Origin: Shigella phage SH7
DNA length: 64,000 bases
Reading direction: 5' to 3' (one strand)
Sequence record: KX828711
The translations under genes were made by a program, and so were the position numbers. The notes under the pieces were generated by a model that searched no databases, was not told where the DNA came from, and worked only from the letters and a program-made list of their open reading frames with translations. The stretch's first letter is position 1; each line of letters opens with the position of its first letter. Of this stretch, positions 463 to 32,944 are shown piece by piece.

Positions 463-1478
463 TGTGTTGCCTCTACATATAGCTGATTTGCATATTGAAT
501 AAGTGCTTCACGATCAGAATCAGTGATGTCTGGAATTGCATTAATATACTCTTCCATTAATGTCTGAAGCGATTGAACTTCAACTTCTTCACTGTCATCT
601 GACTCGACAGAGTTATCAATCTTTGACACAACTCGTAATGAATGCACAACTTTCTCTAGTTCAGATTCGAACTTCGTCAGATTTTTGTCTACTTCAGTTA
701 CTATAACACGTACTGATAGATTTGTAAAATCTTTATAGTCAATTTTTCCTTTAAATGGATAATGAATTCTACGGTGCCAGGTAGTATTGTTTGGAATAAA
801 TTCCATTCGTTCTGTTTCTGTATCAAACATCCAGAACCCACGAGGGTCATTCTCGTCACCTGCAGTTAGTGTCCATGGTGTCCCAATATATCTGACGTTA
901 GCAGCCTCAGAGATAGTATGGAAGTGACCAGACCACACCTCTTTATAAGTCTTAAGGAAATCAGGTTCAAGACCGTGAGATTTCATTCCTTTATAAAAAT
1001 AAAATCCATTCAGCTCCCAGTGACCAACACAAAAAGAAGCAGATGAAGTTTTGATATGCTCAAGAATTTCACCAGTATTTTCTTCGCACATCCAAGGAAT
1101 TAAATCAATTAAACATCCGTCAAAATCTACTGTAGTAGGCTTATCATATACTTTAACATTAGGATATTTAGCCAAAAGCTCAGTAGAGGCATTTGGAGTT
1201 AAAGTATTTTTAAAGTGCATATCATGGTTTCCTACAACAGTATGTAGGGTAATACCAGCATCATCAAGCATTTGAACTATTTCACGAGCGAATTCCATAG
1301 TTTTATGCGTGATTGCTTTTCGCACATCAAAAATATCGCCATATTGAATCCAGGTAGTAATTCCATTTTTCTTAGAATATTCTATGGCTTGTTTAATTCC
1401 ATCCAACTGAATGGATTGAACCCACTCATCATCAGCTTTAACGCCTAAATGCCAATCACCTAAATTTAAAATTTTCAT
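459..1478 (-). CDS. 47: recombination nuclease subunit gp47 (Mre11/SbcD-like metallophosphoesterase)
   Basis: 339 aa; calcineurin-like phosphoesterase motifs GDWHLG, GDIFD, GNHD; size matches T4 gp47. Confidence 0.9.
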   Translation of the reverse strand: MKILNLGDWHLGVKADDEWVQSIQLDGIKQAIEYSKKNGITTWIQYGDIFDVRKAITHKTMEFAREIVQMLDDAGITLHTVVGNHDMHFKNTLTPNASTELLAKYPNVKVYDKPTTVDFDGCLIDLIPWMCEENTGEILEHIKTSSASFCVGHWELNGFYFYKGMKSHGLEPDFLKTYKEVWSGHFHTISEAANVRYIGTPWTLTAGDENDPRGFWMFDTETERMEFIPNNTTWHRRIHYPFKGKIDYKDFTNLSVRVIVTEVDKNLTKFESELEKVVHSLRVVSKIDNSVESDDSEEVEVQSLQTLMEEYINAIPDITDSDREALIQYANQLYVEATQ

Positions 1479-1638
1479 ATATCAAGAACCGTCATTGAAA
1501 TGCAAAATAAAATTATTGAAATAAATCCATCTGGAGTGCTAAAGAACCCAATCCAACATGCTCTAGTGAATAGATAAAATGCAAGAAAAAGTATCACATA
1601 TCCAAAAAATATCATTATATCAAACTCCGTATAAAGCT

Positions 1639-1656: not shown

Positions 1657-2857
1657 ATTTTGTAATAATGTCAAACTGTTCTTTAAAGCAGAAGCTTGAA
1701 TCTTGATGCTGATACAAAAATTCATATGCTTTTTCTCGCTCACGGTCATAAAGAGTTCGGTCAGATGACAGTTCTTTAATACGCTCGAATGTTGATTCCA
1801 TGTCATTTTCATCAAACCAAATGATACCGCTATCATGCGAGGTCAAAGGAGTATTATCAACACGGAATTTTAAATTTTCGCCAGTAGATTTCCAAAATAC
1901 CGGAATTGTTCCACATGCACCAAGCTCGAGATGAGTATATTCTAAAGAGCGCTGTAGATATTTTTTATCCAACTTACTCAACTGATAACCAAATCCGGAT
2001 TTACTCATGCGTTCAAGCATTTCGCTATTTACATAACGGTCAAGAATTTGCGTTGGCAAATTAGGAGCAATTTTAATTTGGTCTACTTGATGAAGACGAT
2101 AATACTCGTATGGAATTCCTTTTTCTTTAATAGGAATGAATGCTGGAGAACGTTCCAGACCTTCCATAATAGTACTTAGTCCTGCAGGTTTAAGATGTTT
2201 TTCGTGAAAATCAAACATCTGGTAAAAACCTTTCCATGTAGTCGTACGACCAATCCATCGATTGACATTCATGTTAATTTCAGAAACATCTTTCCAGTAG
2301 GTTGACCGAACCTTCGCAATATCCATAGGAGGCTGAAAGTTATATACGGTCGGCGCTTCTTCAATATCATCAAACAGAGAAACAGTTTCTGGATACCATT
2401 CTTTCATCAGAACTTTATTAAAATCACCATTATCAGAATGGCTAAAAATAACATCAGCTCGACGAACAGTTTCTTCTAATCCCAAATTTCGGCGCAAAGA
2501 AAGAGAAGAGTGGTCATGTTGATAAACTACAACACGAACCGAAGGTTTAATGTTATCAATAATTTTTTTATAGTTATTAATAGTGTCTTCTTCAACTGAA
2601 GTAGCAGGAACTGAATTGATAATTAGAATATCACAATCATTTACCAGCTTAAGTGTTTTATCGTATTCTTTTGCCAATAAAACCGGAATTGAAAATGATT
2701 TATAATCATGTGCACAGTTACGAGTAAATGATTTATCTTTAGCATAAACCAAAGTTACTTCATGACCATTTTTAATAAACCAATCACGTTGCTCAAGAGA
2801 AAATTTAGTTACACCACAACCTTCAAGACCCCGAGCCATAAAAATACATACTTTCAT
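1655..2857 (-). CDS. a-gt: DNA alpha-glucosyltransferase
   Basis: 400 aa; sequence agrees with my recollection of T4 AGT (N-terminus CIFMARGLEGCGVTKF, C-terminus FCFKEQFDIITK); position next to gene 47. Confidence 0.8.
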   Translation of the reverse strand: MKVCIFMARGLEGCGVTKFSLEQRDWFIKNGHEVTLVYAKDKSFTRNCAHDYKSFSIPVLLAKEYDKTLKLVNDCDILIINSVPATSVEEDTINNYKKIIDNIKPSVRVVVYQHDHSSLSLRRNLGLEETVRRADVIFSHSDNGDFNKVLMKEWYPETVSLFDDIEEAPTVYNFQPPMDIAKVRSTYWKDVSEINMNVNRWIGRTTTWKGFYQMFDFHEKHLKPAGLSTIMEGLERSPAFIPIKEKGIPYEYYRLHQVDQIKIAPNLPTQILDRYVNSEMLERMSKSGFGYQLSKLDKKYLQRSLEYTHLELGACGTIPVFWKSTGENLKFRVDNTPLTSHDSGIIWFDENDMESTFERIKELSSDRTLYDREREKAYEFLYQHQDSSFCFKEQFDIITK

Positions 2858-2908
2858 TTAATATCCTCATTGTTTTGGTTTATTTTACCAAAAATTTATA
2901 AAGCAATA

Positions 2909-2926
2909 TAGGAGCCGAAGCTCCTA
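2909..2926 (-). terminator. UUCG-tetraloop hairpin upstream of a-gt
   Basis: TAGGAGC-CGAA-GCTCCTA. Confidence 0.5.
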
Positions 2927-3100
2927 TCCGCATAATACGCCATACAAAGGCTCATTAGAGCTTCTAAATTTTCTGTGCTTATATGTTATAGTTCCTTCTG
3001 CTTTAGCTTTATCATGAGACTCTTTAAAGCGTCTCATCATTTCTACTTTAGAGGAACGAATTTTATTATAATCTATTTCAGAAGTCTGGGTGTTCATCTT

Positions 3101-3307
3101 TCATAACTGCCACCATTTTTTGACTTGATAAGAATCAACCCACACTTTCATATTAGGGTCTGCTCTTACAATAGGAGGATTAACTTCTTTAATTGAACTA
3201 TCATGGTATTCTTTTTCAGAAATTTTCACACAAAGATGACCATTCAAAGATTCAGTAAATCCTGCATTAATTTTAAGACGCTTGAATTTTACGTGTGTAA
3301 GCATCAA
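3101..3307 (-). CDS. hypothetical small protein
   Basis: 68-aa ORF, overlaps the next ORF by 35 nt; weak support. Confidence 0.35.
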   Translation of the reverse strand: MMLTHVKFKRLKINAGFTESLNGHLCVKISEKEYHDSSIKEVNPPIVRADPNMKVWVDSYQVKKWWQL

Positions 3308-3590
3308 TCATATCCTCAATTTGCGATCTAGTAGTCTTCCAAAGAATACTGATGAGTTCATCGTTATATGGCTGTTTTAGAATATCCCGACTTTTCTTGA
3401 TAGCATATTCGTATTGAGCAAAATTATTATTTTCAGCTGCGATCTGAGCGTGCTTATAAAGACGATTCAGTTCGCGTTTGTTTTTAGACAATAACTTATT
3501 TGCTTTTCTTTCTGCTTCAAGACGGTTCTTTTCTTCAATAGAAGAAATAAGCTTTTCCACTTCATCATTAATTTCGGGTTTATCAGTCAT
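3273..3590 (-). CDS. hypothetical protein, predicted coiled coil
   Basis: 105 aa, charged helical sequence; tightly packed downstream of gene 55. Confidence 0.55.
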   Translation of the reverse strand: MTDKPEINDEVEKLISSIEEKNRLEAERKANKLLSKNKRELNRLYKHAQIAAENNNFAQYEYAIKKSRDILKQPYNDELISILWKTTRSQIEDMIDAYTRKIQAS

Positions 3591-3591
3591 A

Positions 3592-3810
3592 TTATTTCTC
3601 TAATATAAAATAAAAATCATCATCTGTTAAATGATACCGATAATTTAATTCTACACCATTAGATTTAAAAGCGGTATCATACGGATTTTCTGGATCAATA
3701 TCAATGTCAAGAGCTAAAACTTCCCTGAGATACATTTTAAGTAAATAGGGAATAGCTTCAACTTCAGGTATTTCTTCCAAGAATCCGGAGAGGTTAATCG
3801 TTAGCCTCAT
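3592..3810 (-). CDS. hypothetical small protein
   Basis: 72-aa ORF overlapping the gene 55 stop. Confidence 0.5.
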
Positions 3811-28639: not shown

Positions 28640-29113
28640 TTATTTGAACGATTTAACGTACTGAATAGAACCTTTACTATTCACAAAGGCAATTTTACCA
28701 TTTTTGTTATACATAGTAGCAGTACGTTGATAGCCATAAGTTTGTTTACCAGATTGATAACCAACTAATGCGAAATTATCTTCACCCATTTTATTCTGTT
28801 TAGCGCGAATGCGTTCATGACCATGTGCCATAAGAACCTTAGCATCACCGGTTGCAATGGATCGACGAGTTTTTTCATCTTCAACTGTATTAACAAAGTC
28901 GTCAAATGAATCAAATTTAGCATGAGATTTATTATACAGTTTTCCATCTACTGCATAATTATATCCCTGTACATCCATCTCAACTTCTGTACCATCATCC
29001 AGTACAGCAGTGATTTTCTGTCCTTTTTTAAATTTCAAAAGATCAGTAAAAGATTCAGCAATAATTTGAGAATTAATAGCTGCTTCAGTAATAAATTCTT
29101 GATAGGTTTTCAT
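28640..29113 (-). CDS. internal head protein (capsid-targeting-sequence protein), IP locus
   Basis: 157 aa; N-terminal MKTYQEFITEA matches the T4 IP capsid-targeting sequence with an LxE protease site. Confidence 0.7.
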   Translation of the reverse strand: MKTYQEFITEAAINSQIIAESFTDLLKFKKGQKITAVLDDGTEVEMDVQGYNYAVDGKLYNKSHAKFDSFDDFVNTVEDEKTRRSIATGDAKVLMAHGHERIRAKQNKMGEDNFALVGYQSGKQTYGYQRTATMYNKNGKIAFVNSKGSIQYVKSFK

Positions 29114-29129: not shown

Positions 29130-29447
29130 TTATTCTTTAGGGAAGTTTTTAGAATATGCATCATAAAGCTTATTTCCAATACGGCGGAAAACTCTAGCCG
29201 CAAAACGATTTTCTGGGTTTTTAATCATGATTTGCATCATATAAGTACCCGCGTCAGAAAGAGCTTCTTCATAGTACCCGTTAATTTCTTTAAGAGTCCT
29301 ACGTTTACCACCAGGACCATCAACAGTGATTTTCCATTTACCTGTAGAAGTGCGACTTGGCGGCTCAACTTGTTCAATCCAGATATAACCGCCTTCTACA
29401 CGTTGTCCTGCAGCAGATTCTGCAATAAATTCTTGATAGGTTTTCAT
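29130..29447 (-). CDS. internal head protein (capsid-targeting-sequence protein), IP locus
   Basis: 105 aa; N-terminal MKTYQEFIAES capsid-targeting sequence; between the IP gene and lysozyme e. Confidence 0.7.
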   Translation of the reverse strand: MKTYQEFIAESAAGQRVEGGYIWIEQVEPPSRTSTGKWKITVDGPGGKRRTLKEINGYYEEALSDAGTYMMQIMIKNPENRFAARVFRRIGNKLYDAYSKNFPKE

Positions 29448-29535: not shown

Positions 29536-30504
<969 letters not shown>

Positions 30505-30508
<4 letters not shown>

Positions 30509-30993
30509 TTTAATTTCCTGCATTCAGTGATAAAGTTATTTAAATTTTGAGTATATTTCTTTTCATCAAAAATCTTTTGTTGTCTGCGTAGCCGCCATGG
30601 CATTTCAATGAACGTGTACCATATCCCAGATAATATTGCTGCTGTAAAAATATTAACAAGTATGGTTAAAAGAATCCAATCTCCTATTCTGTCCATTGGA
30701 TTTTTTATAAAAAAGTAAAATACGAATGATGTCACAGGAAGACTAATAATATACCACAGAATCATAATTTTATCTGTGAACCAATCAGCGTTCGTTAACT
30801 TAGCGCGACCATTATGAATACACACGAATTTATCATCTGTTATAATAGATGGCTTAGCTGCTTGATATCCCATTCTAAACTCCCTAATCAACAAATTTTT
30901 CATATCTTCGGAACAACCATTCCAGTCAACTCTATCAACTGAAATGCCATCATCCCCATCATCTAAATCATACCAGCGAGTTTTTAAAATCAT
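30505..30993 (-). CDS. membrane protein, junction-motif family member
   Basis: 162 aa; two C-terminal TM segments; ends FITECRKLK. Confidence 0.6.
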
Positions 30994-31352
30994 TTAATTT
31001 TCCTACAATCACTCACAAACTCTTCCATTGATTCTTTTTCAATATAAGACATGTAGCTATTATATTCTTTTAATTGTATTTTGTAATCTTTTTTTCTTTG
31101 CCAATTTATTTTAAAATTATCATAATGAAAATATAACATAGTACCAAAGAATGAAAATAATGAAATAATTTTAGTATAGTGAAGTTCACTCCAAACTTCT
31201 ATTATATCTACTGTGCCGTCAATGTTTAAAATAAGACAGTCAATTAACAATCCAAAAAGACTACCCGCAAGAGCTGCTGCCAACGCCACAGCAAAAATTA
31301 AAAATGACTCAGGAAGCGAATATTTGACTTTATTTAGTTTTGGCTTTTGCAT
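30990..31352 (-). CDS. membrane protein, junction-motif family member
   Basis: 120 aa; N-terminal TM; ends FVSDCRKIK. Confidence 0.6.
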   Translation of the reverse strand: MQKPKLNKVKYSLPESFLIFAVALAAALAGSLFGLLIDCLILNIDGTVDIIEVWSELHYTKIISLFSFFGTMLYFHYDNFKINWQRKKDYKIQLKEYNSYMSYIEKESMEEFVSDCRKIK

Positions 31353-31726
31353 CGTGATTCCTTAACAAATTTCATAATTTCATCAAATTCATACGCAGCA
31401 AGTTTAAGCTGATGTTCCCTTTTAATCTTTTTACACTGTGCTTTCCAATCACGTACGCGTTTACGATAATGTCTTCCTTGATACCAGTATCCTACCCAAT
31501 TTACAGGTACTAATAAAAGTGGAACTATTAATGGAAGAATTAGCATTAACACAAGTATTTCGCCAGAATCAATATCAGTCATAACATCTAAAACACCTCC
31601 AATAATCAATAGAATTACAAATGATATGAGTATAACAGGACCTATTAATACATCAGTAGAAATTAGCTGGCGCTTTAATTCATACTTTAAGGGTTTACTT
31701 GGAAGGTATAGTGATGGCTTTGACAT
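31334..31726 (-). CDS. membrane protein, junction-motif family member
   Basis: Start at MSKPSLY (second ATG, better RBS); TM-rich; ends FVKESRCK. Confidence 0.55.
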   Translation of the reverse strand: MSKPSLYLPSKPLKYELKRQLISTDVLIGPVILISFVILLIIGGVLDVMTDIDSGEILVLMLILPLIVPLLLVPVNWVGYWYQGRHYRKRVRDWKAQCKKIKREHQLKLAAYEFDEIMKFVKESRCKSQN

Positions 31727-32309
31727 ATTCTCTACATTCCTTAACAAATTTTTCTAATAATAAATCGCTTTCAAAATTGGGATTTTCTACGAATTTATCA
31801 AAAAGATCATCAACAATAGTTAAGATATTCTTTTTACTAAGAATACGTTTATTTTCATGCTTCGTTTCAGAATCAACTATAAGAGTAAAGAAATATTTCT
31901 TGCCCTGAAATTTTACAGTAGTATCAATATAGAATAAATTTGATTTTTGTAAATTACGTTTAAACCATGCATCACTTAAACTATAAACGCCAAGATAATC
32001 ATAATCGTCGTTTAAATAACAGACCGTCCATTCAGGAGAAACAAAATCAGTAAATTCAACGTCAAAATCGCATGTTAATAAATGAATTGATTCAATACTG
32101 TTAATAAGTATTCCAGGACGTATTAAAGATTTTTTACCTCTAGAAAATCTTCCAGAAAGACTTTCATCAGTTTCATATGAAGAACCCCAATAATAATTAC
32201 GTCCTTCTGCCATACGTTTAAGAGCATTTAATAATTGGTCTGGAACATCAACCTGTCTTTGGAACTCTTCAAACATTGAATTGAAATCACTTTGCATTTT
32301 CATTTTCAT
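31695..32309 (-). CDS. hypothetical protein, junction-motif family member
   Basis: 204 aa; ends FVKECREY; GGAG RBS; preceded by a terminator hairpin. Confidence 0.6.
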   Translation of the reverse strand: MKMKMQSDFNSMFEEFQRQVDVPDQLLNALKRMAEGRNYYWGSSYETDESLSGRFSRGKKSLIRPGILINSIESIHLLTCDFDVEFTDFVSPEWTVCYLNDDYDYLGVYSLSDAWFKRNLQKSNLFYIDTTVKFQGKKYFFTLIVDSETKHENKRILSKKNILTIVDDLFDKFVENPNFESDLLLEKFVKECREYVKAITIPSK

Positions 32310-32330
32310 TCCTATTTACTCCAAGTAATA

Positions 32331-32344
32331 GGGGCCGAAGCCCC
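32331..32344 (-). terminator. UUCG-tetraloop hairpin (terminator or stabiliser)
   Basis: GGGGC-CGAA-GCCCC between the 32351 stop and the 32309 start. Confidence 0.55.
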
Positions 32345-32350
32345 TTATCA

Positions 32351-32944
32351 TTATTTCAGAGAATTAATGTATTCCTGAACATCAGCAGAGGTAGTTTCAA
32401 CCCCAGAAATATTACCGTTAAAGGTTTCAACTCGAGCAAGAGTATCTTCAATATCAACCTTAGTCAGTGCTGCAATTTCAACTACATCATCAGCAGTACT
32501 AATTCCGAGGGCATTCGCGGCGCGAGTTTCACGGATATATTCCAATTTAACTGCAAGTTCTTGGCGAGCATCATCTAACTCAACTACTTTCTTGGCGATT
32601 TCAATTCGCATTTCAGCATAACCATCAGCTTTAGTAGTTAACTGCTCAGCTGTTCGACGATATAGTAAACCGAGTTTAGCATGCATTGTTACATCTTGAC
32701 CTTCGGAAAGAAGCTTGCGAATTTCACGCTCTTTTGATTCGGCCTGTCGATTCTTTTCGACAATAAGTTCACGAATACGCTTTTCTTCATTAATAGATTT
32801 AACAGAAGCAGTTTTTAGATCTTTAATCTTATCAAGTAGTTTTGCTGCCGCAGCAGTATACTGTTCTTCAACAGATAGATTTTTAGCCATAGCAGAACCA
32901 AGTTTAGTGCGAATAAACTCAACAATTTTCTTCAGTGTGTTCAT
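32351..32944 (-). CDS. coiled-coil protein
   Basis: 197 aa, largely helical/charged; no enzymatic motif. Confidence 0.6.

Follow-up and report, generated by a model that had tools for sequence, protein, structure and literature searches.

A short C-terminal peptide encoded across successive gene overlaps as the probable basis of a repeated junction sequence in a T4-like phage

Why do four successive gene junctions of a T4-like phage carry variants of one short sequence, and for what is that sequence kept? The question is raised by a 64,000-nt stretch of DNA from Shigella phage SH7 (KX828711; hereafter the window), which belongs to a Tequatrovirus. An earlier note had pointed there to a repeat that overlaps the start of each downstream gene while encoding the end of each upstream protein, and had proposed for it the role of a translational operator or of a recombination hotspot.

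The genes concerned are e.5, e.4, e.3 and e.2, in that order, upstream of nudE on the minus strand; the ORF coordinates first proposed for them were borne out (Table 1). From e.5 through nudE they form an unbroken chain in which each gene overlaps the next start, by 32 nt, 19 nt and then twice by 4 nt (ATGA). The chain begins downstream of the terminator-like hairpin that follows e.6 (32330-32345), the sole one found. The L13089 annotation gives msp4-msp8 without a promoter, and a scan with the promoter consensus returned only weak sigma-70-like matches, which lie inside gene bodies and never coincide with a junction. A Shine-Dalgarno (SD) sequence, AAGGA or AGGA, stands 7-8 nt before the ATG of e.3, e.2 and nudE and 11 nt before that of e.4. 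Stop/start overlap and an SD placed within the upstream coding sequence, both found here, are the features of a translationally coupled overlapping operon; on this arrangement, the genes from e.5 to nudE are candidates for such coupling.

Table 1. Location in the window of the genes, tails and repeats discussed in the text
Feature	Position	Strand	Description
e.5	31695..32309	-	204 aa, soluble, without TM segment; T4 msp4; Pfam PF26876
e.4	31334..31726	-	130 aa; TM helices 31-49 and 57-75; basic C-terminal region; Pfam PF26873 Phage_T4_Y06O
e.3	30990..31352	-	120 aa, membrane protein
e.2	30505..30993	-	162 aa; soluble N-terminal part, then two TM helices; Pfam PF26896
nudE	30068..30508	-	Nudix hydrolase (Pfam NUDIX, E 3.9e-13); ATG at 30508; downstream of the last junction
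e.5 tail motif codons	31731..31748	-	TTT GTT AAG GAA TGT AGA (F V K E C R); e.4 ATG at 31726-31724
e.4 tail motif codons	31352..31369	-	TTT GTT AAG GAA TCA CGA (F V K E S R); AAGGAA is the e.3 SD; e.3 ATG at 31352-31350
e.3 tail and e.2 start	30990..31019	-	TTTGTGAGTGATTGTAGGAAAATTAAATGA; AGGA is the SD, ATGA the stop/start overlap
e.2 tail and nudE start	30505..30534	-	TTTATCACTGAATGCAGGAAATTAAAATGA; nudE ATG at 30508
16-nt repeat, copy 1	31736..31751	-	AAATTTGTTAAGGAAT; in e.5 tail
16-nt repeat, copy 2	31357..31372	-	AAATTTGTTAAGGAAT; in e.4 tail
TGYAGGAAA crossover repeat, upstream copy	31007-30999	-	in e.3 tail
TGYAGGAAA crossover repeat, downstream copy	30522-30514	-	in e.2 tail

Three of the four products had been described as small membrane proteins, and this holds for E.4, E.3 and E.2, E.5 being the soluble one. 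Hydropathy analysis gave two segments above threshold for both e.4 and e.2 and a clear first segment for e.3, the second helix of which (residues 61-76) is below threshold and was assigned by eye. The C-terminal regions of all three are basic. They are predicted to be small two-pass membrane proteins with C-termini that, by the positive-inside rule, would be cytoplasmic. For e.2 to e.6, nothing informative, i.e. no homologue of known function or structure, came out of sequence searches of Pfam, NCBIfam and the PDB, and PHROGs places these genes in families without informative function ('membrane protein' for e.2). A literature search for the genes returned nothing relevant, and we found no support for the labels 'sulfurtransferase' and 'host specificity protein' that GenBank attaches to them. 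The AlphaFold2 models of e.5 and e.2 are of low confidence (pLDDT 57.6 and 52.8), as are the tails, modelled as helical with a pLDDT of 50-60. Comparison of the e.5 model with the PDB by Foldseek yielded non-significant matches only, the best being to small alarmone synthetases (E at least 5e-3, TM 0.2).

Each of the four proteins ends in F-[VI]-x-[ED]-[C/S]-R, within a longer consensus L-x-x-F-[VI]-x-[ED]-C-R-[KE], and the corresponding codons overlap the SD and start codon of the next gene; the nudE protein is without the motif. The e.5 tail ends in ...EKFVKECREYVKAITIPSK (motif-bearing part, LLLEKFVKECREYVKAITIPSK), the e.4 tail reads MKFVKESRCKSQN and the e.3 tail ends in ...EEFVSDCRKIK (MEEFVSDCRKIK). 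The nucleotide core common to the four junctions is TTT RTN NNN GAN TGY/TCA MGN. ORFs and sequence thus agree that the repeated junction, as claimed, encodes a common C-terminal tail in all four genes. The form proposed for that tail, F-V/I-x-E/D-C-R-K, is right in general but not in two particulars, the Ser of e.4 at the Cys position and the Glu of e.5 where the others have Lys. The e.5 protein also extends 11 residues past the six-residue core. The e.4 tail is of the form F-V-K-E-x-R, the position of the Cys being taken by Ser in the window and by Ile or Val in relatives. A Cys follows two residues later in T4-type phages and Mosigvirus, and is absent in a distant homologue (P0101). Because e.4 has no Cys at the motif position, that residue cannot be universally required.

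The motif is short and the region AT-rich (35% GC in the window), so that the first explanation to consider is a chance likeness of AT-rich gene ends, which the earlier note had itself named as fatal to its proposal. The counts show a strong excess over chance. When the last 20 residues of the 100 window ORFs were compared all against all (4,950 pairs), pairs within these four genes ranked 1, 2, 3 and 5. Six-frame translation of the window gives five matches to the pattern F[VI]x[ED][CS]R where shuffled sequence leads one to expect 0.375, and four of the five are the C-termini described here; the strict motif occurs nowhere else in the 64 kb, and a further 72.5 kb of the T4 genome has none. 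The longest exact repeat of the 2.6-kb region is a direct repeat of 16 nt, AAATTTGTTAAGGAAT, with one copy in the e.5 tail and one in the e.4 tail. Since the motif is moreover kept in orthologues of 28-51% protein identity, we regard a chance likeness as practically negligible.

Common ancestry of whole genes may account for part of the likeness. The view of the locus as a four-gene family is overstated: in hhalign comparisons (shallow alignments, Neff about 1.7), e.4 and e.3 align full length (probability 81%, E 1e-5, 108 columns), but e.2 and e.5 match the others over 12-15 tail columns only (E 3e-4 to 3e-3). The four genes fall into four different PHROG families. Judged from these comparisons, only e.4 and e.3 look like full-length paralogues, and e.2 and e.5 appear to have nothing detectable in common with the others but the tail.

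The next point is whether relatives keep the motif and, if so, as peptide or as nucleic acid. The locus is carried by only three lineages, a small comparative depth. A phmmer search with e.4 against 1.84 billion representative proteins gave six matches, one of which led to the metagenomic contig L024, and a scan of IMG/VR with the same protein gave five loci only. Word-indexed protein searches returned mostly close relatives (at least 67% identity for e.3, at least 86% for e.2) and, for e.5, also two Mosigvirus-type proteins at 46-48%. Absence of the motif from the loci of related phages would likewise have undone the proposal; it is kept both in Mosigvirus and in a distant metagenomic phage. 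The tails of Mosigvirus JS09 are FIMECRE (e.5), FVKEIRCKS (e.4) and FIKECRK (e.3), and the e.2 orthologue of BEU50, 28% identical overall, has FITECR, with all six positions kept. On L024, e.4 is 30% identical and has an e.4-like tail, FIKEVR; the e.3-like protein stops at the contig edge in ...ETFIK; and the protein at the e.5 position matches T4 e.5 only in LNRFIAECREYAKG (BLASTP E 1e-4). The codons of this last tail, TTT ATT GCT GAA TGT CGT GAA TAT (FIAECREY), contain no SD: here the peptide is kept without a ribosome-binding role.

The orthologues in Mosigvirus and in the distant phage keep F, V/I, E/D, C and R while codons change. Synonymous variation in the tails includes TTT/TTC, TGT/TGC, ACT/ACC, AGT/AGC, ATT/ATC and, for Arg, AGA/AGG/CGA/CGT, and the x position is free (S, I, N, K, T, M or A). 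By comparison, F, D, C, R and K of e.3 do not vary among 36 cluster representatives, nor do F, E, C, R, E, Y, V and K of e.5 among 13 or the motif residues of e.2 among 42. Since the variation is either synonymous or at the free position, selection appears to be on the protein, and the substitution pattern suggests that the repeat is conserved mainly as protein and not as an RNA operator. This separation of protein from RNA draws mainly on the one distant contig and on synonymous variation; every tail in Tequatrovirus and Mosigvirus falls on the ribosome-binding site of the next gene, and there the two constraints are not fully separable.

That a second constraint exists is suggested by the DNA itself. 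Among 10 Tequatrovirus genomes, nucleotide diversity at the four junctions was 0.014, 0.000, 0.068 and 0.018 versus a locus mean of 0.071, the 35-nt e.4/e.3 junction being invariant (diversity 0.0). At e.5/e.4, Mosigvirus JS09 has the same 26 nt, GGAATGTAGAGAATATGTCAAAGCCA, without a single difference, whereas identity in the flanking genes is no more than 57-60%. The DNA is unusually invariant at three of the four junctions, which is what overlapping frames together with a ribosome-binding site would lead one to expect. Could the ribosome-binding site explain everything? Tails would then be alike only through coding for an SD and an A/U-rich spacer (AAGGAA gives K-E and AGGAAA gives R-K), and the peptide would be functionless. 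The low junction diversity agrees with such convergence, as does the placing of the SDs of e.3, e.2 and nudE inside tail codons at a good distance (7-8 nt); on L024, the K-E-V of the e.4 tail is AAGGAGG, six nt before the e.3-like ATG. However, F, V/I and C, which are the most conserved residues, are not SD codons; the SD falls on different motif residues, K-E in e.4 and R-K in e.3 and e.2; the e.5 tail of L024 is still FIAECREY although it contains no SD; and SD-like sequences precede about 70 other gene starts in the window while the proteins upstream of them lack such tails. We consider it quite improbable that convergence is the whole story.

The reading that we favour, and hold to be probable on the sequence comparisons, is that the sequence repeated at the junctions encodes a short conserved C-terminal peptide, and that ribosome binding imposes a second constraint on the same nucleotides. 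The comparisons indicate that selection acts first on the peptide, which forms the tail of the products of four consecutive, overlapping early genes, one soluble (E.5) and three membrane (E.4, E.3 and E.2). As the tail is written over the next SD and start (K-E as AAGGAA, R-K as AGGAAA, then ATGA), its nucleotides are constrained a second time, which accounts for three of the four junctions being islands of DNA conservation. The repeat probably originated by tandem duplication, supported for e.4/e.3 only, and, where neighbouring genes became joined, by renewed use of the junction. As for the peptide, it would most likely serve the four proteins as a shared motif for interaction or assembly, placed where a cytoplasmic helix ends.

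The earlier suggestion of a RegA-type translational operator is not supported. It supposes that RegA or a similar repressor binds each junction and jointly shuts off e.4, e.3, e.2 and nudE, so that binding would be expected at all four junction RNAs and would depend on the TTTGTNNNNGANTGY bases. RegA sites cover the AUG or the segment between it and the SD (PMC3014915). The e.3/e.2 and e.2/nudE junctions (AGGAAAAUUAAAUGAUU and AGGAAAUUAAAAUGAAA) do resemble the sites of gene 44 (AAAUUAUGAUU) and dexA (AAAAUUUAAUGUUU), AAAUUUGUUA, present in the tails of e.5 and e.4, is similar to the 5' portion of the SELEX consensus aaAAUUGUUAUGUAA (PMC3014915), and the junctions, A/U-rich and at early-gene starts, are unstructured, as RegA sites are. 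But the shared core lies 5' of the SD or over it, upstream of the segment that RegA occupies, and is conserved as codons. The A/U-only spacer with its A-run is found at e.3/e.2 and e.2/nudE only, not at e.5/e.4 or e.4/e.3, so that two of the four junctions are RegA-like; the same spacer property is seen at 11 of 70 crudely called gene starts in the window (16%); and it is not kept in BEU50 (GGAAUUUGAGAUG) or L024 (AAGGAGGUUCGUAAUG). The RNA of the junctions gave no Rfam match and no shared fold (folding z-scores 1.1, 0.4, -2.0 and 0.5). With a substitution pattern that is one of protein-coding constraint, a repressor acting at these sites seems to us very unlikely.

Recombination at the repeat has left clearer traces. 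In 55 phage records, T2, RB32, RB33, PST and PP01 among them, e.3 is joined directly to nudE and e.2 is missing exactly; the gene is present in 446 of about 512 records with the locus. The e.2-less records have a hybrid tail, made of the ...GATTGCAGG of e.3 and the AAATTAAAATGA of e.2. In PP01 and T2-type genomes the junction reads ...GAGTTTGTGAGTGATTGCAGGAAATTAAAATGAAAAC, with e.3 sequence up to TGCAGGAAA followed by e.2/nudE sequence and 485 nt removed, which would place the crossover inside the TG(C/T)AGGAAA repeat. The ends of the deletion thus fall in two repeat copies, of which one hybrid copy is left, as expected of deletion between short direct repeats. The gene that follows the e.3 tail differs from one configuration to another (e.2 in T4-type phages, nudE in T2-type, RB69ORF139c in Mosigvirus), and in BEU50 an unrelated ORF of 83 aa comes after the e.2 tail. 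Records named 'T4_ev' without e.2 were considered as de novo deletions and rejected, being 94% identical to T4 and not T4 derivatives.

Is the repeat, then, kept mainly for in-frame excision, insertion or swapping of genes by homologous recombination, with the peptide secondary? It would then correspond, within coding sequence, to the PeSL elements that hyperplastic regions of T4-type phages carry. The precise presence or absence of e.2 through a crossover in the repeat, the change of gene behind the e.3 and BEU50 e.2 tails and the 16-nt exact repeat joining the e.5 and e.4 tails fit this proposal, and so does the tendency of position 2 (V or I) to match from tail to tail in one lineage, a possible effect of gene conversion. 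On the other hand, the e.3 alleles of the five e.2-less genomes sampled are mutual nearest neighbours (0.3-2.4% divergence) with mosaic flanks, a pattern that fits one old event spread by recombination and not recurrent events. Other rearrangements occurred at unrelated microhomologies (UFV06 at TCCTGT in the TM region, Shigella A2 within e.5), and no contiguous e.4-less junction was evident with a synthetic query, whose halves are also joined in e.4-containing genomes. Synonymous change keeps amino acids that pure DNA homology does not need, and erodes that homology: with TGT in one copy and TGC in the other, as in the window, identity is reduced to AGGAAA. Where genes are tightly packed, moreover, viable indels must end at gene junctions anyway. 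No new cassette inserted between repeats was seen. A role of the repeat primarily in cassette exchange is therefore unlikely, if less so than the operator. As to the hotspot first proposed, the loss of e.2 with a crossover inside the repeat stands, but since the e.3 alleles cluster together, one or a few events suffice and a hotspot is not called for. Under the favoured reading recombination would be a by-product: direct repeats are substrates for short-homology recombination, and an exchange between the e.3 and e.2 copies would remove e.2 exactly, leave both the hybrid tail and the nudE start intact and produce the T2-type state.

Several T4 systems offer comparisons. The internal proteins IPI, IPII and IPIII carry an N-terminal capsid-targeting sequence (CTS) that directs their packaging into the core of the prohead and is removed by the gp21 protease; the CTS was reportedly described by Mullaney and Black in 1996, and Repoila et al. 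are said to have reported the polymorphism of the ip loci in 1994. As with the CTS, a short terminal peptide is common to adjacent, otherwise dissimilar accessory products and is encoded by a repeated DNA block with a ribosome-binding site. Unlike the CTS, the e.x motif is C-terminal, belongs to early proteins (three of them membrane proteins) and is encoded across a gene overlap instead of at a free 5' end. The CTS core E-F-I-x-E resembles the tail core [EKN]-F-[VI]-x-E, a four-residue likeness too short to be significant. Cleavage of the tails by the prohead protease (L/I-x-E) was set aside, given this four-residue likeness and carriers that are early cytoplasmic or membrane proteins. A CTS block is present in the window itself, where two ip-type genes located just downstream of e have in common 37 nt, TTAAAGGAAACACATGAAAACCTATCAAGAATTTATT, encoding MKTYQEFI(A/T)E.

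PeSLs are intergenic, consist of a strong sigma-70-like promoter and a terminator stem-loop, and form mini-circles. The e.x junctions share with them a repeated short sequence that bounds non-essential genes in a variable T4-type region, and recombination that removes or adds a gene: two copies flank e.2, which is gained or lost between close relatives. They differ in being coding, in having neither a promoter match nor a gene-strand terminator nor a shared stem-loop, and in an exact identity of 9-16 nt only. Deletions between short repeats in T4 were reportedly studied in rII and the e region by Pribnow et al. (1981), Owen et al. (1983) and Singer and Westlye (1988). The e.2-less genomes are as expected from recombination between 9-12-nt repeats 485 nt apart, but the repeat in this case belongs to a functional coding element under conservation, the deletion yields a hybrid gene and a downstream start that are both intact, and the loss is a natural polymorphism (T2 versus T4 and T6), not a laboratory mutant. 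As in translational coupling, each SD of the chain lies in the preceding tail; ordinary coupling, however, needs no common C-terminal peptide, and the e.x peptide is conserved beyond the SD codons. No new mechanism is involved, since terminal shared peptides, translational coupling and short-repeat deletion all have precedents in T4.

To conclude, one stretch of DNA would carry three loads, namely a conserved peptide, the ribosome-binding site of the next gene and recombination homology, and the difference in gene content between T2 and T4/T6 would be explained at the nucleotide level. A more ambitious version, which we find rather doubtful, makes the tail a docking or assembly peptide that binds the E.5-E.2 proteins to each other or to one partner, with boundary recombination regenerating tail and start; if it were true, the locus would be a system embedded in coding sequence by which accessory genes are gained, lost or exchanged in frame, and would in this differ from the PeSL cassettes, which are intergenic. 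E.2 to E.5 belong to the large group of uncharacterised early 'msp/e.x' proteins of T4, the best studied of phages. For them the shared tail would be a first concrete handle: it predicts a common partner or complex and names the residues to mutate.

The window phage is a T4-like Tequatrovirus, and 512 phage records match positions 30000-32400 with 90-99% identity. In the old T4 GenBank entry L13089 the genes of this region (see table) bear the names msp3-msp8. Genes e.5, e.4, e.3 and e.2 form with nudE a chain in which successive genes overlap by 32, 19, 4 and 4 nt. Each of the four ends in a conserved C-terminal peptide, F-[VI]-x-[ED]-[C/S]-R, which is written over the start region of the next gene. 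The earlier note had described this as a four-gene family sharing a repeated junction sequence that also encodes a common C-terminal motif; the junction sequences it quoted match the window, and the similarity exceeds chance on four counts. Translated in six frames, the 64-kb window has five matches to F[VI]x[ED][CS]R where 0.375 are expected, and four of them are the C-termini of e.5, e.4, e.3 and e.2. A second test needed no motif defined post hoc: the C-terminal 20 residues of 100 non-overlapping ORFs were compared all against all by their best ungapped 7-mer (BLOSUM62), and pairs among the four genes occupied ranks 1, 2, 3 and 5 of 4,950. A 16-nt exact repeat, longer than any other in the region, is common to the e.5 and e.4 tails. 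Finally, a further 72.5 kb of T4 early-gene DNA contains no copy of the strict motif.

Features of the e.6-e region and of rearranged loci (window coordinates, unless another phage is named)
Feature	Coordinates	Strand	Remarks
e.6	32351-32944	minus	
Terminator-like GC-rich hairpin AGGGGCCGAAGCCCCT	32330-32345		between e.6 and e.5; stem-loop in L13089 annotation
e.5	31695-32309	minus	204 aa; tail ...LLLEKFVKECREYVKAITIPSK
e.4	31334-31726	minus	130 aa; tail ...DEIMKFVKESRCKSQN
e.3	30990-31352	minus	120 aa; tail ...ESMEEFVSDCRKIK
e.2	30505-30993	minus	162 aa
nudE	30068-30508	minus	Pfam NUDIX, E 3.9e-13
e (lysozyme)		minus	after nudE in gene order
ip-type ORF	29130-29447	minus	just downstream of e; 5' block at 29447
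ip-type ORF	28640-29113	minus	just downstream of e; 5' block at 29113
UFV06 (L002)	1166-1486		in-frame e.4N::e.2C hybrid, e.3 removed; crossover at TCCTGT
Shigella phage A2 (L019)	2207-2950		in-frame e.5N::e.4C fusion
Metagenomic protein P0098			e.4 without both TM helices
BEU50 (L020), unverified genome	2507-3713		rearranged e.5-nudE region
Mosigvirus JS09 (L004)	2857-3651		RB69ORF139c, 137c and 136c after e.3; also in L009, L022 and L023

The motif is also present at the homologous loci of more distant phages. In Mosigvirus JS09 and its relatives the tails read ...EQFIMECREYVKA... (e.5), ...MEFVKEIRCKSLNS (e.4) and ...ENFIKECRK (e.3), and in the e.2 orthologue of the Mosigvirus-labelled BEU50, which is 28% identical overall, FITECR is among the longest identical runs. 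A phmmer search with e.4 against 1.84 billion representative proteins returned six proteins only. Through one of these, 30% identical, a 2.25-kb metagenomic contig with unchanged gene order, L024, was reached. There, similarity of the e.5-position protein to T4 e.5 is confined to LNRFIAECREYAKG (BLASTP E 1e-4), the e.4-like protein ends in EEFIKEVRNGTA, and the e.3-like protein (25% identical, E 1e-10) is cut by the contig edge at ...LETFIK. Across 24 loci the conserved residues are written with alternative codons (TTT/TTC, TGT/TGC, ATC/ATT, ACT/ACC, AGT/AGC, and AGA/AGG/CGA/CGT for Arg), and the x position varies freely. The e.5 tail of L024 (TTT ATT GCT GAA TGT CGT GAA TAT) contains no Shine-Dalgarno (SD) sequence, a good one, AAAGGGG, lying further downstream; the peptide is therefore kept without that role. 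Among cluster representatives, F/D/C/R/K are invariant in 36 e.3 clusters, F/I/E/C/R/K/L/K in 42 e.2 clusters and F/E/C/R/E/Y/V/K in 13 e.5 clusters. Orthologues, codons and cluster representatives all point to an element of the protein, not of the nucleic acid, and show selection on the peptide. Motif position 2 tends to agree within a lineage (Tequatrovirus V, V, V, I; Mosigvirus I, V, I; L024 I, I, I); for these few lineages, either gene conversion between junctions or co-evolution of tails that interact could account for this.

The junctions are under an added constraint at the DNA level. Among 10 Tequatrovirus genomes, diversity was 0.014 at e.5/e.4, 0.000 at e.4/e.3, 0.068 at e.3/e.2 and 0.018 at e.2/nudE, for a locus mean of 0.071. 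At the e.5/e.4 junction, GGAATGTAGAGAATATGTCAAAGCCA is a 26-nt island of exact identity between Tequatrovirus and Mosigvirus, in genes otherwise 57-60% identical. Such constraint would be the expected product of overlapping frames plus a ribosome-binding site: the SD sequence of e.3 (AAGGAA, encoding K-E) and those of e.2 and nudE (AGGAAA, encoding R-K) lie inside tail codons, 7-8 nt 5' of the ATG. No RNA secondary structure common to the four junctions was found (z-scores 1.1, 0.4, -2.0 and 0.5), nor any Rfam match. The earlier note had suggested that the repeat could be a translational operator of the type bound by the repressor RegA, whose sites are A+U-rich, unstructured and placed over the AUG or just 5' of it (SELEX consensus aaAAUUGUUAUGUAA; natural site of gene 44 AAAUUAUGAUU; Uzan and Miller review, PMC3014915). 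The e.3/e.2 and e.2/nudE junctions do resemble known sites, but e.5/e.4 and e.4/e.3 do not, 11 of 70 gene starts in the window share that crude property, and the RegA-like feature is not retained in BEU50 and L024. Moreover, the stretch that all four junctions share sits upstream of the RegA-type segment. The RegA reading is not supported for the repeat as such, even if individual start regions may be RegA-sensitive, like many T4 early genes.

The family proposed earlier probably holds for two genes out of four. In profile-profile comparisons of alignments built from the 24 loci, e.4 matched e.3 over 108 columns (probability 81%, E 1e-5); the two are probably paralogues and also have the N-terminus M-x-K-P in common. 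The e.3/e.2, e.5/e.2 and e.5/e.3 matches are confined to 12-15 tail residues (E 3e-4 to 3e-3) and PHROGs assigns the four genes to four different families. Apart from this short module at their ends, the proteins are therefore not detectably related.

The other reading of the earlier note, a recombination hotspot shuffling gene cassettes, stands in part. The e.3 tail is followed by e.2 in T4-type phages, by nudE in T2-type phages and by RB69ORF139c in Mosigvirus. Of about 512 records, 446 carry e.2. In PP01 and 54 other records, including T2, RB32, RB33 and Yersinia phage PST, e.3 is joined directly to nudE. In these, e.3 ends in ...FV(S/I)DCRKLK, not ...CRKIK, and the junction DNA reads ...GATTGCAGG|AAATTAAAATGAAAAC; the crossover therefore fell within TG(C/T)AGGAAA, common to the e.3 and e.2 tails, removing 485 nt. 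At least one precise gene loss was mediated by the repeat; deletions of this kind, between short direct repeats, are well known from classical T4 genetics. Several points speak against a hotspot. In the five e.2-less genomes sampled, the e.3 alleles are mutual nearest neighbours within mosaic e.4 and nudE flanks, which fits a single old event spread by recombination. The other rearrangements (UFV06, Shigella phage A2 and P0098; see table) used different microhomologies, and the e.2-less 'T4_ev' phages are not derivatives of T4. Recombination would be a by-product of the repeat. BEU50 has unrelated sequence in place of the C-terminal half of e.5 and lacks e.4 and e.3; its e.2, highly divergent, follows directly, and an 83-aa ORF separates e.2 from nudE.

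All four deletion or fusion variants examined, the e.2 deletion included, are in frame and keep the tail, and those of UFV06, A2 and P0098 keep both N-terminus and tail, a hint that selection favours an open frame up to the junction. Alleles with frameshifts do exist, however: e.2 of T4 (L003, L011) is split into ORFs of 102 and 63 aa, and since the 162-aa gene is intact in the window phage and most relatives, T4 may be a natural e.2 mutant. As to expression, no promoter is annotated between e.6 and nudE in L13089; a consensus scan gave several weak sigma-70-like matches on the gene strand inside e.5-e.2, none of which coincides with a junction. Should all of them be non-functional, expression of e.5-nudE would depend on read-through and the chain of overlapping starts.

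Three of the four products are membrane proteins, as noted earlier: e.4 and e.2 each have two TM segments that exceed the hydropathy threshold, e.3 has a clear first segment and a second helix (residues 61-76, below threshold) assigned by eye, and e.5 has none. Because the C-terminal regions are basic, the positive-inside rule predicts that the tails should be cytoplasmic; they are helical in low-confidence AlphaFold2 models. No family or structural match pointing to function was found for the locus proteins, and nothing in Pfam, NCBIfam, PHROGs or PDB backs the 'sulfurtransferase' (e.3, e.4) and 'host specificity protein' (e.6) labels of many GenBank records, which are unsupported. The best Foldseek PDB matches of the low-confidence e.5 model (pLDDT 57.6, pTM 0.60) were all small alarmone synthetases (RelP/RelQ, FaRel2), curious beside a Nudix hydrolase but not significant (E >= 5e-3, TM about 0.2); no conclusion is drawn from them.

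In the T4 internal proteins, the products of dissimilar neighbouring genes share a short terminal peptide, the capsid-targeting sequence, which is encoded within a repeated block that includes the ribosome-binding site. By analogy this peptide is the nearest precedent for the tail, although it is N-terminal, cleaved and of known function, whereas the tail is C-terminal. The two ip-type genes share a 37-nt 5' block, TTAAAGGAAACACATGAAAACCTATCAAGAATTTATT, comprising the ribosome-binding site and the N-terminus MKTYQEFI(A/T)E, which we take to resemble that sequence; its core E-F-I-x-E recalls the tail core [EKN]-F-[VI]-x-E, too short a likeness for significance. A second instance of conserved tails at gene junctions is found in the same region of Mosigvirus, where the small genes RB69ORF139c, 137c and 136c form a mini-family ending in W-V-[SA]-S-S-x-x-C and a stop. 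The TAA of ORF139c and ORF137c directly adjoins the GGA(A) SD sequence of the next gene; ORF136c ends in TGCTAAAACAG, without such a fusion. PeSL cassettes are likewise gene-boundary repeats but, unlike the present junctions, intergenic promoter-terminator elements (PMC2839356).

We suggest that the tail is the end of a cytoplasmic helix and serves E.5, E.4, E.3 and E.2 alike in interaction or assembly, that the repeat may have arisen by tandem duplication (e.4/e.3) and reuse of junctions, and that the genes may be translationally coupled. The main value of the tail lies in offering a way into the study of four uncharacterised T4 proteins.
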